Position numbers and translations under genes: made by a program | In this document: piece by piece, positions 15,848 to 24,815 of the stretch | Layout of the letters: each line of letters opens with the position of its first letter | How positions within the stretch are numbered: position 1 is the stretch's first letter | Source: Escherichia coli | GTDB taxonomy: Bacteria; Pseudomonadota; Gammaproteobacteria; Enterobacterales; Enterobacteriaceae | Strand: one strand, 5' to 3' | Assembly (NCBI RefSeq): GCF_045037415.1 | Contig: NZ_CP173438.1 | DNA length: 64,000 nt | Notes under the pieces: model-generated | Seen by the model: only the letters and a program-made list of their open reading frames with translations | Told to the model about the DNA's origin: nothing | Databases searched by the model: none

Positions 15848-16897
15848 CTATTTATCTTTTTTTAGTATGGCCTTGAGGGCTGCGATATTGGCCCGTGCGC
15901 CTTCGGCTTCTTTTAAACGACGGCGCTGCTGGGCAAAGCGGTCAAACTCCAATTTCGCTTTGTCATCAGCGTCTTTCTTGGAGATTTTTCCTGCACCGTT
16001 TAATACATCTCTATCGTTAAAACTCAAGAACTGGTCAAGCTTATCGGCCCAGTCCTGTAAAAATACCTGCTTGCGACGCAGTGCTTGGTCTTCAGCAAAG
16101 TCGAGCCACATATTGACGATGCGATTAAGCTCTTTGATTTCGTCTTCACGCAAATAGTTCTTGGCAACAGTAACGTCTGTCTTGCGCACTTCATCGCCTT
16201 TATAGCTGGTTAAGCCCATATCCGGCTTACTGGCATCCACACGGCTGGCGATAAGCTCAGCAGCCGTCATATGCGTACAAGCATAATGCAGCTTATTCTG
16301 AATGGTTTGGAAGAAGCGGTTGGTCTCTTGGTTAGATGGCTCGTAATCAGCAGCCATGGTAAAGATTTCTTTGACTCGCAGATAAACGCGACGCTCACTA
16401 GCTCGGATATCACGAATGCGTTCCAGCATTTCATCAAAGTAATCTGGCACAGCAGAATGGCCAATGGGCGGATTTTTCAGGCGCTCGTCATCCATGACGA
16501 ATCCTTTGATTAGGTATTCTTGCAACATTCTGGTTGCCCATTGGCGGAACTGGGTGCCACGTGTTGAGCGAACTCGGTATCCTACTGCAAGAATAACCGG
16601 AAGACTGTAGTGACGAATGCTTCGCTTTACTTCTCTGCCACCTTCCAGTTGAACTTGTAAGTAATCCTTACAAGTTGAAATTTGCTCAAGCTCTTCTTCA
16701 GAATAGACAGCTTTTACGTGTTGGGTGATTGCTTGAGAGCTAACTTGATAAAGCTCTGCCATTGCAGCCTGAGAAAGCCACAAGGTGTCAGACTCAAAAC
16801 GACACTCAACGCGGGTTTGACCATCAGCACTGGTGAAAAGAACAAACTCACCTTGAGGAGCTTGTGGGATGTTATCGGCCATTGAATCAACCTTCAT
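15848..16897 (-). CDS. RhuM-family protein (commonly embedded in type I restriction-modification loci)
   Basis: 349-aa ORF with VGYRVRSTRGTQFRQWATRMLQEYLIKGFVMDDERL... matching the recalled RhuM-family core; 20 bp downstream of the preceding gene on the same strand. Confidence 0.75.
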   Translation of the reverse strand: MKVDSMADNIPQAPQGEFVLFTSADGQTRVECRFESDTLWLSQAAMAELYQVSSQAITQHVKAVYSEEELEQISTCKDYLQVQLEGGREVKRSIRHYSLPVILAVGYRVRSTRGTQFRQWATRMLQEYLIKGFVMDDERLKNPPIGHSAVPDYFDEMLERIRDIRASERRVYLRVKEIFTMAADYEPSNQETNRFFQTIQNKLHYACTHMTAAELIASRVDASKPDMGLTSYKGDEVRKTDVTVAKNYLREDEIKELNRIVNMWLDFAEDQALRRKQVFLQDWADKLDQFLSFNDRDVLNGAGKISKKDADDKAKLEFDRFAQQRRRLKEAEGARANIAALKAILKKDK

Positions 16898-16917
16898 ATG
16901 TTACTGATAATGGGCTA

Positions 16918-21550: not shown

Positions 21551-22836
21551 TACACCGCCTCCCTGACGTCTATTTTTCCTGTGACAGCCGCGTTGATCAG
21601 CGATGTGCGGTGTTCTTTTAGAAGATCAATCGATTTATCAGTCTCTTGAATCAGTAAATCAATGTTTATCGTTGCTGCACTCAAGTAATTCGTTATTGTC
21701 TTTTGCTCATCAATTGGTGGGATAGCAATACTTGTATTAGCTAGTGAAGGAATGCTCAGGTTGTAGTTACCTACCGATGTTCTTGACTGAAATGTTAATG
21801 CTTGACGAACAGATAGTGAGTTCATCGCTTCCACTAAGAAGCTAGTATCCACTCCTTGCTTTGGTGTTAACTTTATTAGGTACGACGCAAATAAATACTG
21901 CCCATTTGAATCAAAAAGCGCGCTTTGGCCGACCAGATTAGGGTTACCGTTAGTTCTGATGACTAAAATGTCGCCTCTTGATAAAAGATAAGTTAAAGCA
22001 TCAACATCACTGATATTTGCATATTTGAGATCTTCAAAATCAACATTGGTACTCTTGATGTTTGGTATCCTGAGAACAGGATAGCCAACATCAGACTGGT
22101 TACAGTCTTGAGAGGTTCCATACATAAAGTTGGAGCAAATATGCTTTATCTTTTTGACTTCCCAATGCTTCGGCACTTGCCCAATCCACTCGATGCCAGA
22201 GTCCTGCATCTCCACATTGGGATAGAGCCCCTTTGTGACCACATGGCTGATCAGTGCTTGGCGTTTTTCTTTGAGCAGCTTAATAAAGGTCTGCTTTTCC
22301 TCGATCAGACTGTCGATGCGCTGGGTTTCGCGATCAAGGAATGTGCTAACCTGCTTCTGTAATGAAATATCAATCAGTGGAACAGGTATTTCTAAAAGAT
22401 CACCAGCTGTTAGGTTCTGACGAACTCCTCCACCCAGTTTGTTATAAATATTGGTTAGGTATAGAGCAAAAAAGTACCAGTAATAGAACCTTGGGTAGAT
22501 GCTATTTGAACTCGCTGAAACACGGATGTATGCAGGGCTCATTATTCCTCGTTCATGCACAATCCCCACTCGGCTAGTCTTTATATTTTCAAGATCTATG
22601 AGCTTAAAAACTAAGTCATCTTTTTCAAAAATCTGATAAACAGAGTAATCAGAAGATTGAAGTCCTTGTAAATCGTCTAACGAGCGGTTTATGACACCTT
22701 TCATTGTTAGTGCAAGACGATTAGATTCTTTCATTCCTTGATTGATTTCTTTGCTACTCGTAAATAAACGTTTAGCTGGTACTGAGTTCCATTTCGAGTC
22801 AGATACGAAAGCATCTACTATGTTGCCAGCATTCAT
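21550..22836 (-). CDS. hsdS: Type I restriction-modification specificity subunit (HsdS), two target-recognition domains
   Basis: 428-aa ORF with bipartite architecture and conserved central/C-terminal coiled spacer regions; overlaps hsdM stop and hsdR start. Confidence 0.85.
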   Translation of the reverse strand: MNAGNIVDAFVSDSKWNSVPAKRLFTSSKEINQGMKESNRLALTMKGVINRSLDDLQGLQSSDYSVYQIFEKDDLVFKLIDLENIKTSRVGIVHERGIMSPAYIRVSASSNSIYPRFYYWYFFALYLTNIYNKLGGGVRQNLTAGDLLEIPVPLIDISLQKQVSTFLDRETQRIDSLIEEKQTFIKLLKEKRQALISHVVTKGLYPNVEMQDSGIEWIGQVPKHWEVKKIKHICSNFMYGTSQDCNQSDVGYPVLRIPNIKSTNVDFEDLKYANISDVDALTYLLSRGDILVIRTNGNPNLVGQSALFDSNGQYLFASYLIKLTPKQGVDTSFLVEAMNSLSVRQALTFQSRTSVGNYNLSIPSLANTSIAIPPIDEQKTITNYLSAATINIDLLIQETDKSIDLLKEHRTSLINAAVTGKIDVREAV

Positions 22837-24815
22837 TACGCCACCTCATTCAGCAGAGCCTGAATGCGCGCTTCACATGCTTTTAGCTCACGATCAATCA
22901 CACTCAACTCGCGTGGTGGCACGTATTGGTAGAAATAGCGGTTAAAGTTAATTTCATAACCGACAATGCCCACTTCGCCGTCTTTTTCATCACGCACTGA
23001 GTGATCAATAAAGGCATCCGGTACATGTGGCAGCACCTCTTGTGCGAAGTAATCTTCAACGTCGCGGTCAAAAGGAATGCTTTCGGTGTCTTTGAGTTTA
23101 GGGTCGGCGATCACTTGGCCTTTTTCATCCAGTGCAGGCTCAAATTGCGGATCAATTTTTACAAAGTGCGCAGTTAAGGCCGTAGCCAGTGCTTTTGAGC
23201 ACTTACCAAAGTCACCCTTATTGTTATTCTTCTTAACCGCCAAACGTGCCCATTCATAAGGCTGAAGGCCAAGGTTATCGGTGAGGTATTGTACCCATGC
23301 CGCTTGTTGCTCTGGTTTGAGTTTTTTAAACGTATCTTGCTGCACAAATGCAGCAATGCCCGCAGCGGTAATATCTAGTTTGGCACGCAGTGGACGCTGA
23401 ATGGTGACTTTACGGTAGGCAAAATCAGTAGTCTGGAAGATCTTACAGTTGTCACTGGCTTCAAAGCCATCGTACGCACGGACAATATCGTCAATCTGTT
23501 CATCACTCAGGTACTTGCGCTTATCGCCTTGCGATTTACGCATGGGAGTCCAAATATCTGCCAAGTTAATCAGTTGCACCTGATTCTTGCGTCTTGGCTC
23601 TTTATGGTTAGTCAAAATCCAGATGTAGGTGCCAATGCCGGTGTTGAAGAACATATCGGTTGGCAGGGCAACAATCGCTTCGACTAAGTCTTGTTCTAGC
23701 AGCCAACGGCGGATTTCTGATGGGCCTGAGCCTGCATCGCCATTAAACAGTGGCGAGCCAGAAAGGACTATACCCACTCGGCCACCACCATTTTCTGGCG
23801 TTTCCATTTTTGATACCAAGTGCAGTAAAAACAGCATTGAACCATCAGAAATACTCGGCAGGCCTGGCCCAAAGCGTCCGGCGTATTTGAGCTGTTTGTG
23901 CTCACGTTCTACTTCTTTCTTGGCTTTTTCCCACTTAATGCCAAATGGCGGGTTGGCAAGGCCGTAGTGAAACTTGTCGGCACGTAACTGATCGTCTGAT
24001 AAGGTGTTGCCTTGCTTGATGTTATTGGCATCAAAACCGCGGATCATCATATTGGTCAGCGCCATGGCATGGGTCGCGGGGTCGAGCTCTTGACCAAAAG
24101 GCACGACTTTAGCGCTGCTGCCCATTTCTTCAATTTGGCTAATGGCATCGGAAAGGAAACCGCCCGTGCCACAGGTTGGGTCATAGATGGTGCGGATCAC
24201 ACCCTTTTCACTAAAGATATCTTCATCCGCCGCCAGCACCAGTTTGGTGGCAAGACGCACGGCATCACGCGGGGTCATAAATTCCCCGGCCTTTTCATTA
24301 ACCGAACTGGCGAACTTTAGAATCAGCTCTTCATAAGCATCTGATAATACGCGGTCAGACACTACATCAGGATGCAAGTCGAGGTTGGCAAAATGGTTTA
24401 CCATGCGATACAGCAACTTGGCTTTTTCCAGATCTTCTATGGTTTGACCAAATTTAAACTCATCAAAGATGGTACGAACGTTTTTGCTGAACTGGCTGAT
24501 GTAGTGTTCTAGGTTGTCGCCGGTGTCTGACGCGCCTAAGGTTTCTAGGCTATATTCACTGGTGTTGTAAAAGGCGAATCCCGCAATTTCTGGCAACACT
24601 AAACCAAGGTCTATGCCGGATTGTTTTTCGGCCAGATAGAACTTACGAACTTCCTCACGGGTGGGTTCTAACACGCATTCAATACGACGCAGTAGCAAAA
24701 ATGGCAGGATAATCCGCGCAAAATCGGTGTGTTTGAAATCACCCCATAAATCATCTGCCATACGCCAAATAGCACTGGAGAGTTTGGCGCTTTGTTCTTT
24801 GTCTTGTAAGTTCAT
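22836..24815 (-). CDS. hsdM: Type I restriction-modification N6-adenine DNA methyltransferase (HsdM), with a long C-terminal extension
   Basis: 659-aa ORF; AdoMet motif DPTCGTGGFL and catalytic NPPFG motif. Confidence 0.9.
   Translation of the reverse strand: MNLQDKEQSAKLSSAIWRMADDLWGDFKHTDFARIILPFLLLRRIECVLEPTREEVRKFYLAEKQSGIDLGLVLPEIAGFAFYNTSEYSLETLGASDTGDNLEHYISQFSKNVRTIFDEFKFGQTIEDLEKAKLLYRMVNHFANLDLHPDVVSDRVLSDAYEELILKFASSVNEKAGEFMTPRDAVRLATKLVLAADEDIFSEKGVIRTIYDPTCGTGGFLSDAISQIEEMGSSAKVVPFGQELDPATHAMALTNMMIRGFDANNIKQGNTLSDDQLRADKFHYGLANPPFGIKWEKAKKEVEREHKQLKYAGRFGPGLPSISDGSMLFLLHLVSKMETPENGGGRVGIVLSGSPLFNGDAGSGPSEIRRWLLEQDLVEAIVALPTDMFFNTGIGTYIWILTNHKEPRRKNQVQLINLADIWTPMRKSQGDKRKYLSDEQIDDIVRAYDGFEASDNCKIFQTTDFAYRKVTIQRPLRAKLDITAAGIAAFVQQDTFKKLKPEQQAAWVQYLTDNLGLQPYEWARLAVKKNNNKGDFGKCSKALATALTAHFVKIDPQFEPALDEKGQVIADPKLKDTESIPFDRDVEDYFAQEVLPHVPDAFIDHSVRDEKDGEVGIVGYEINFNRYFYQYVPPRELSVIDRELKACEARIQALLNEVA

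Follow-up and report, generated by a model that had tools for sequence, protein, structure and literature searches.

Of the points raised by the locus analyzed here, the most interesting is a possible functional role for the recurrent joining of Kiwa defense genes to type I restriction-modification (R-M) genes within operons. We analyzed a window of 64 000 nucleotides (nt) from Escherichia coli (NCBI RefSeq assembly GCF_045037415.1, contig NZ_CP173438.1; 'the window' refers to this whole stretch), in which the type I genes hsdM, hsdS and hsdR are followed on the same strand by a two-gene cassette and a RhuM-family gene (rhuM). A previous reading made from the sequence alone (the sequence-only reading) had described an island-borne M-S-R operon with coupled junctions, extended by the cassette and the RhuM-family gene, and the open reading frames (ORFs) and the TAATG overlaps at positions 22836 and 21550 agreed with this description. 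The cassette is indeed present; it had been left unnamed and corresponds to Kiwa (KwaA and KwaB). The co-oriented array contains seven genes rather than the six counted earlier, as a RelB-like gene located 67 nt upstream of hsdM in the same orientation, and conserved alongside it in Vibrio, belongs to it. We consider it probable that the array combines three separate anti-phage systems with a regulator, on an immobilized fragment of an MGIVchHai6-family island within the E. coli selC island.

We compared the two cassette proteins, of 184 and 280 amino acids (aa), with profile and structure databases. The 184-aa protein matched the PADLOC KwaA model over its full length (9.3e-16) and the NCBIfam KwaA model at 1.1e-5 (25 bits, under the cut-off of 100), and contained hydrophobic segments across residues ~3–138. 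Its AlphaFold2 model (predicted local distance difference test, pLDDT, 87.3), from which the number of helices was read, showed significant fold matches in the PDB to KwaA only (9mrx_A, 9mrg and 9mrr; E 4.5e-5 to 1e-3, template modeling (TM) score up to 0.63). Similarly, the 280-aa protein matched PADLOC KwaB over its full length (7.1e-14), and its AlphaFold2 model (pLDDT 92.7) showed significant fold matches to KwaB only (9mtn, 9mrx_D and 9nyu; E 4e-7, TM 0.62–0.65, over the full length and with 10–12% identity to the solved protein). The two genes are adjacent in the same orientation and overlap by 1 nt at position 17760. These matches indicate that the cassette is probably a divergent Kiwa subfamily that is recognized by PADLOC models and predicted fold, not by Pfam.

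Kiwa was reportedly described as a defense system by Doron in 2018. The mechanism and structures of KwaA and KwaB have been published (Zhang, Todeschini et al. 2025, PMC11785009; PDB 9mrx, 9mtn, 9mrg), and the same paper ties Kiwa to RecBCD and Gam. As in canonical Kiwa, the pair in the window consists of adjacent genes for a membrane and a soluble protein, with the same predicted folds over the full length and with PADLOC matches. However, canonical KwaB is ~315 aa long, whereas the KwaB of the window belongs to a ~275-aa family, and the pair in the window is joined to hsdR by a 1-nt overlap. The family of the 280-aa protein comprises 534 clusters at 50% identity, and members from Vibrio, Shewanella, Aeromonas, Alteromonas and Proteus share 82–95% identity.

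Several results weigh against the above reading of the cassette and the array. The 280-aa protein had no Pfam match, KwaB PF16162 (DUF4868) included; the hhalign comparison of its family profile with canonical KwaB was not significant (Prob 0.5, E 0.11); and a search (hmmsearch) of PDB sequences with the KwaB-like family profile (A1) retrieved no KwaB chain. HsdR is very distant from characterized enzymes (EcoR124I at only 1e-4), a simple sigma-70 scan called no promoter ahead of hsdM or of the RelB-like gene, and the hairpin that follows rhuM has a weak U-tract on the rhuM strand. Moreover, the frequent and tight fusion of this Kiwa subfamily to type I operons could mean more than parallel action. 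Among the further searches, BLASTP of the 280-aa protein against canonical KwaB was not significant, phmmer searches of PDB sequences with either cassette protein gave nothing useful, and the family profile A5 matched no PDB sequence. Because the Pfam, hhalign and PDB profile searches fail, the assignment to Kiwa rests on the PADLOC models, the predicted folds and a few family members, with Pfam KwaB PF16162 matching 4 of 51 diverse members of the 280-aa protein's family (best, 1e-6).

The absent Pfam match, the non-significant hhalign comparison and the RefSeq label 'hypothetical' of both genes would also suit a membrane protein and a soluble protein with a role other than defense, as might be suggested by the name 'ATP F0F1 synthase synthase' under which the 280-aa family mostly appears in NCBI and UniRef records. 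We regard such a role as highly improbable. In the whole PDB, both predicted folds match solely KwaA and KwaB; the PADLOC matches to these two models span the full length; Pfam KwaA is present in the partner gene of relatives; restriction, DarTG and other defense genes nearly always surround the pair; and no domain justifies the database name. The name seems to have been spread by annotation transfer. The assignment thus provides names and a testable function for two RefSeq-hypothetical genes in 76 complete E. coli genomes, and for a family that bears a meaningless name in many Vibrio, Shewanella and Aeromonas records.

We further examined how the pair is connected to its neighbors. In an island at yicC of Vibrio cholerae (L011), only window positions 18322..16926 (kwaA-kwaB) are shared, at 80% nt identity, and the shared stretch begins 8 nt ahead of the kwaA ATG and breaks off 8 nt short of the kwaB stop. 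There, the Kiwa pair is flanked by a DUF2357/PDDEXK gene and DarTG, and kwaA has its own upstream intergenic region of 112 nt. Conversely, a sister hsdMSR operon in V. parahaemolyticus (L013) is 88–91% identical to that of the window at the nt level, but the similarity extends only to 18341, which is 27 nt short of the hsdR stop, and an ATPase pair replaces Kiwa after hsdR. The last ~9 hsdR codons and the stop therefore belong to the splice junction, and the kwaA ribosome-binding site lies inside these last ~9 codons. The more distant Kiwa pairs stand alone or sit in an SNF2-DUF4391-methylase-Res operon. These comparisons point to the Kiwa pair being a discrete, exchangeable module. They also provide a nucleotide-level view of a small defense module spliced to the end of hsdR, in which the hsdR stop overlaps the start codon of the module.

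If Kiwa is an exchangeable module spliced onto the 3' end of hsdR, the systems would therefore act as parallel layers and not as one machine. HsdM and HsdS would methylate, in the host DNA, the bipartite site that the two target-recognition domains (TRDs) of HsdS specify, and HsdR would translocate along unmethylated incoming DNA and then cut. By analogy with solved Kiwa, the membrane protein KwaA may sense phage attachment or DNA entry, and KwaB may bind entering DNA and block DNA replication and late transcription. RhuM would be a candidate single-gene defense. A natural three-system operon of this kind is suited to the question of additive versus synergistic defense.

Some additional features of these loci were recorded. 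The V. parahaemolyticus locus (1..1082 and 6751..16595 of L013) is an smpB island dense with defense genes and with other cargo in the position behind hsdR; it contains a canonical Kiwa, RadC, DUF2787, DUF6119, the sister hsdMSR, and a gene for an 846-aa ATPase with a 265-aa gene. In three contigs (L008–L010, 5574..16309), a Kiwa-like pair of 194 and 285 aa (36% identity) is found in an operon of an SNF2 helicase, DUF4391, an N6/N4 methylase and a Res-type endonuclease; the junctions of this operon overlap, and the contigs, which also carry topoisomerase VI genes, are probably archaeal. Kiwa pairs of both subfamilies are repeatedly located beside DarT with DarG or NADAR (L011, 10840..12532; L041; L099, 8000..9361; L032–L034), often with gaps of a few nucleotides; this is another recurrent association, in addition to that with type I R-M.

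We surveyed the contexts of the ~275-aa subfamily using one genome per species, with labeling by ORFs and BLAST; the genome scan was seeded with the narrower alignment A2, the 51-sequence alignment A1 being too diverse. The survey returned 80 loci, of which 78 were counted. A KwaA-like partner was found upstream of the KwaB-like gene in 72 loci, and hsd genes were present on the same strand within four genes in at least 40. The latter number is a minimum, as the upstream flank is cut short in 12 of the loci scored as negative. The order RMS-Kiwa was observed in 17 loci (in 15 of these, the genes overlap or are ≤2 nt apart), MSR-Kiwa in 8–10, MS-Kiwa-R in 2–4 and Kiwa-MSR in 2–3, and the type I families of the survey were only 20–30% identical to that of the window. 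In a small control of five canonical Kiwa loci, type I R-M was located beside two, DarT-NADAR beside one and a NACHT protein beside one, and one stood alone. As two of the five are type I-linked, the link is not unique to the ~275-aa subfamily, and it may reflect a general hotspot effect. Our literature searches found no description of Kiwa in or beside type I operons. With about half of the subfamily in type I operons, these loci provide a quantifiable case for R-M operons carrying other immune modules.

The fraction of type I-linked loci, the variety of gene orders and the low identity (20–30%) of the type I families to each other, together with the two canonical loci, would also be explained if Kiwa assisted the type I enzyme functionally instead of merely adjoining it, with translational coupling setting a required stoichiometry. 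Type I enzymes are known to cut at sites of stalled translocation, so that a membrane-anchored KwaB roadblock might stall HsdR and lead to cleavage. Alternatively, Kiwa might back up restriction when Gam blocks RecBCD, in line with the connection of Kiwa to RecBCD and Gam (PMC11785009). However, the module occurs at 80–87% identity in contexts other than type I (DarTG/DUF2357, stand-alone and type III-like), and cloned Kiwa systems protect by themselves. In addition, DarTG2, the ATPase pair and RhuM fill the same slots of type I operons, as a general hotspot effect would predict, and the RMS-Kiwa order may have arisen by one fusion and then been disseminated by transfer. We accordingly consider the accessory role unlikely. 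It is similarly doubtful that the ~275-aa subfamily is a dedicated type I partner, incorporated into hsd operons time and again because its membrane-tethered KwaB, on incoming DNA, cooperates with the HsdR motor. If it were, protection should be more than additive, with KwaB as the stall site or as an arm that survives the loss of RecBCD to Gam.

The coordinates of the array and its flanking features are summarized in Table 1. All four junctions from hsdM to the 280-aa gene (M/S, S/R, hsdR/184-aa at 18314 and 184-aa/280-aa) are TAATG overlaps of 1 nt, and purine-rich Shine-Dalgarno motifs (GAGGTGG, GGGAGG, GGTGA and GAGG) are found 5–9 nt 5' of each start. These overlaps would couple the translation of hsdS, hsdR, kwaA and kwaB to that of the preceding gene. 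The start of rhuM is the ATG at 16882, which was chosen by PGAP and is conserved in V. cholerae; rhuM is thus separated from the 280-aa gene by 35 nt, not by the 20 bp given in the sequence-only reading, and is preceded by its own Shine-Dalgarno motif.

Table 1. Positions of the genes of the array and of adjoining features in the window
Feature	Position	Strand	Description
hsdM	22836..24815	minus	659 aa, type I adenine methyltransferase subunit
hsdS	21550..22836	minus	428 aa, specificity subunit
hsdR	18314..21550	minus	1078 aa, restriction/translocase subunit
kwaA-like	17760..18314	minus	184 aa, membrane protein with small C-terminal beta domain
kwaB-like	16918..17760	minus	280 aa, divergent ~275-aa subfamily
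RhuM-family gene	15848..16882	minus	344 aa from the conserved start; ORF extends 15848..16897
RelB-like gene	24883..25380	minus	165 aa; RelB/DinJ-like ribbon-helix-helix N-terminus; proposed array regulator
Candidate promoter and operator	25384..25460	minus	upstream of the RelB-like gene; TTGACT at 25456..25451
Hairpin, candidate bidirectional terminator	15800..15843	no strand	between convergent rhuM and mobI
mobI pseudogene	15114..15790	+	IncA/C-type mobilization gene of the parent island

A terminator scan of the array found no terminator-like hairpin ahead of the strong hairpin after rhuM, and terminator-like sites in the array were fewer than in shuffled sequence. The hairpin after rhuM has a folding energy of –23.7 kcal/mol (z = –5.3), none of 200 shuffles folded as well, and a T-run follows it on the + strand; it is a candidate for the closure of the array. 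An Rfam search found no RNA family within 14500..26500. With neither gaps between the genes nor terminator-like hairpins ahead of the strong one behind rhuM, the anatomy of the array fits a single transcription unit, and transcription would most likely run from upstream of the RelB-like gene through to this hairpin. The array might alternatively consist of several transcription units, with promoters of Kiwa, of rhuM or of both embedded in the 3' portion of the gene before them and with compactness reflecting only the history of splicing. In classical type IC systems, hsdR is driven by its own promoter. Promoter-like hexamers on the minus strand within hsdR (20786 and 20263) and kwaB (17666), the intergenic region upstream of kwaA in V. 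cholerae, and the gap and Shine-Dalgarno motif before rhuM would be consistent with separate units. Nevertheless, the array contained fewer promoter-like matches in the sigma-70 scan (13) than shuffled sequence (17.2); the V. cholerae homology begins just 8 nt before the kwaA ATG, so that the upstream region was not carried along; and coupled genes typically show TAATG overlaps whose Shine-Dalgarno motif lies within the upstream gene. Furthermore, rhuM in Pectobacterium still follows the RelB-like gene, and nothing but a deletion scar separates the two. Taken together, several units appear somewhat unlikely, and we infer a single unit.

The regulator that we propose for this unit is the RelB-like protein. 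It matched Pfam RelB at residues 5–67 (5.4e-5) and phrog_2737 (1e-10), and its C-terminal half has no assignment. Its gene is also located upstream of hsdM in V. cholerae L014 and in the Vibrio loci L016 and L017. A RelB/DinJ type II antitoxin was considered and rejected, as the RelB match is confined to the N-terminus, and no toxin gene is adjacent, the neighboring gene being hsdM; RefSeq's designation 'antitoxin' probably misleads. A block at 25417..25384 is invariant in the window, L014, L016 and L017, whereas the surrounding DNA is only ~66% identical. This block contains TACAAT and an inverted repeat, TACAA-T-TTGTA (25406..25396), and is a candidate operator to judge from its conservation. 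Through this repeat, the RelB-like ribbon-helix-helix protein might repress its own promoter.

At the other end of the array, the RhuM protein matched Pfam Virulence_RhuM PF13310 over most of its length (1.4e-113) and the PADLOC candidate PDC-S05 (8.4e-167). A PDC-S05 gene from a cold-seep genome cut the plating of T7 and T5 ~1000-fold; the RhuM of the window matches this family at full length and is a defense candidate. RhuM-family genes do recur in type I loci, as had been noted from the sequence: we found them in L080 and L091, and they are described in passages of Rivard et al. (2020, PMC7449626), in which RhuM is a near-constant backbone gene of MGIVchHai6-family islands.

The RelB-like gene and rhuM bracket the array in the window, L014, L016 and L017. 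At trmE of Pectobacterium brasiliense (L104–L107, ~9001..10966), we observed both genes intact. Between them lies a scar in which the initial 36 nt of hsdM are joined to the final ~100 nt of hsdR, together with a 3' remnant of kwaB. This arrangement fits read-through from an upstream promoter into rhuM and suggests that the RelB-like gene and rhuM were kept for their own sake. One might further propose that the two are an original pair, an antitoxin-like regulator with an effector, bracketing a cargo slot, into which R-M and Kiwa were inserted later, and the backbone status of RhuM would agree with this. However, the sister operon in V. parahaemolyticus has neither gene, RhuM is found without the RelB-like gene in L019, L080 and L091, no toxin-like activity of RhuM is documented here, and the Pectobacterium state is clearly derived by deletion. 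An original pair is therefore quite improbable.

An array composed of a regulator, type I R-M genes and an embedded defense system has an experimentally supported precedent, by analogy, in the RptR-RMS-DarTG2-M48 island of enteropathogenic E. coli (EPEC), which was shown to be anti-phage and to be under repression at a single upstream promoter (Zhang et al. 2025, PMC12255303). In both islands, a small regulator, type I R-M genes and an embedded defense system are co-oriented, with an extra gene at the end and with insertion sequences (IS) at the flanks. They differ in the regulator, which in EPEC is RptR, a 79-aa helix-turn-helix (HTH) protein that binds TAGCTA (PMC12255303), and in the window is the 165-aa RelB-like protein; in the position of the embedded system (DarTG2 between hsdS and hsdR in EPEC, Kiwa after hsdR in the window); and in the tail gene (an M48 peptidase in EPEC, RhuM in the window). 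RptR-type regulation was rejected for the window, as the upstream protein is RelB-like and no TAGCTA repeats were seen.

We then assigned the three R-M genes. HsdM matched the PADLOC MTase_I model PDLC03029 over its whole length (1.9e-243) and contained the Pfam domains HsdM_N and N6_Mtase, with NPPF at residue 288. HsdS matched many PADLOC Specificity_I models (best, 4e-97). Its two TRDs are variable; the central region (nt 22344..22159) and the C-terminal region (from ~21660) are conserved. HsdR contained the Pfam domains HSDR_N, SWI2_SNF2/ResIII and T1R_D3-like, with motor motifs GSGKT at 327, DEAH at 440 and TAT at 495. The three genes are thus type I R-M genes, encoding an HsdM with NPPF, a two-TRD HsdS and an HsdR with a PD-(D/E)xK nuclease N-domain and a superfamily 2 motor. 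The sequence-only reading had called HsdM unusually long; its length is ordinary, since the PADLOC model of 661 positions matches end to end and the HsdM partners of this Kiwa subfamily in the locus survey span 489–921 aa. The ~200 additional residues to which it referred do exist, although they follow the end of Pfam N6_Mtase (~456) and not NPPF; a Pfam search and a sequence search for solved relatives found no match for these C-terminal 200 residues. HsdS likewise has the two TRDs reported earlier, but the conclusion drawn from them that the specificity is non-standard fails, because a full-length HsdS normally carries two TRDs.

As to the type I family, our comparison covered IA, IB and IC. 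The system shares with classical E. coli enzymes the three subunits and the canonical domains, and its M-S-R order is that of IC. However, the similarity of HsdM to EcoR124II M (2.4e-26) and EcoKI M (1.5e-13), which were among its PDB relatives, and of HsdR to EcoR124I was low, and a Pfam search found no EcoEI_R_C domain in HsdR. Membership in IA, IB or IC (EcoKI, EcoAI/EcoEI and EcoR124I) was ruled out on these grounds. HsdM, HsdR and HsdS all scored under the cut-offs of the NCBIfam hsdM, hsdR and HsdS models, with HsdS reaching 104 bits against a cut-off of 662 for the only named HsdS equivalog model (NCBI curated). The enzyme represents a different type I lineage, one shared with Vibrio and Shewanella. 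Both TRDs of hsdS are swapped relative to L013 and L014, in which the systems are otherwise 88–93% identical and only the central and C-terminal regions of hsdS align. In addition, the C-terminal tail of HsdR (residues 995–1073, window 18314..18610) showed a weak match to PADLOC PDC-S15 (9.3e-6, profile positions 299–377 of 380).

Finally, we determined the origin of the array. The whole 9.8 kb is present as a single chromosomal copy in 76 of 5426 complete E. coli genomes, with ≥99% identity in 75, and sits in the selC island with tia, integrase remnants and several IS elements. The guanine-plus-cytosine content of the fragment region is 37–48%, versus 52–57% for much of the window beyond 40000, and each protein has ≥90% identical relatives in Vibrio, Shewanella, Salmonella and others. 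Window positions 25580..15088 align with a trmE island of V. cholerae (L014/L015) at 89–93% nt identity, except for the two hsdS TRDs. The gene order of the latter island is resolvase, RelB-like, hsdM, hsdS, hsdR, kwaA, kwaB, rhuM, convergent mobI, AlpA, DUF927, HTH, int and trmE. According to passages of Rivard et al. (PMC7449626), trmE islands of the MGIVchHai6 family are mobilized by IncC plasmids and carry type I R-M cargo, with RhuM beside mobI; these passages do not name the Kiwa pair. The window shares with this family, at the above identity, the array from the RelB-like gene to mobI, but keeps the cargo only, without int, xis, the DUF927 replication gene and the upstream oriT region, and the fragment is IS-flanked in the selC island and not located at trmE. 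Full membership in the family (int/xis, mobI and oriT, an AcaCD-controlled HTH-DUF927 operon and a site at trmE, yicC or dusA) was rejected, as the window retains nothing of it beyond the cargo and a frameshifted mobI. An origin from an SXT/R391 integrative and conjugative element, considered for the ~93-kb V. cholerae contigs, was also dropped, as their gene context is that of a trmE mobilizable island.

The boundaries of the fragment were defined as follows. An IS1 copy (25612..26379) abuts it on one side. On the other side, the island homology ends at 15088, 26 nt past the mobI start, and IS remnants lie below this position. The mobI gene is 89% identical to V. cholerae mobI at the nt level and has a 1-nt deletion near 15318, which leads to a frameshift and a stop; PGAP/RefSeq annotates only the C-terminal 128 aa, as MobI(A/C). 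Because of the IS1 cut at ~25612, the end 26 nt past the mobI start and the 1-nt deletion in mobI, window positions 25580..15088 are best regarded as an immobilized cargo fragment of an IncC-mobilizable island of Vibrio type. The earlier view that the array is island-borne thus stands, whereas the array is not a native E. coli island module, and part of the E. coli selC island is a captured piece of a Vibrio-type mobilizable defense island. Given this origin, the array is a stack of known immune systems and not a new kind. The IS1 copy also truncates a tyrosine recombinase gene (26367..26594), of which the C-terminal 75 aa are left, and to the right of IS1 are tia, a phosphoethanolamine transferase gene, an intact integrase gene and tRNA-Sec (32525..32619).

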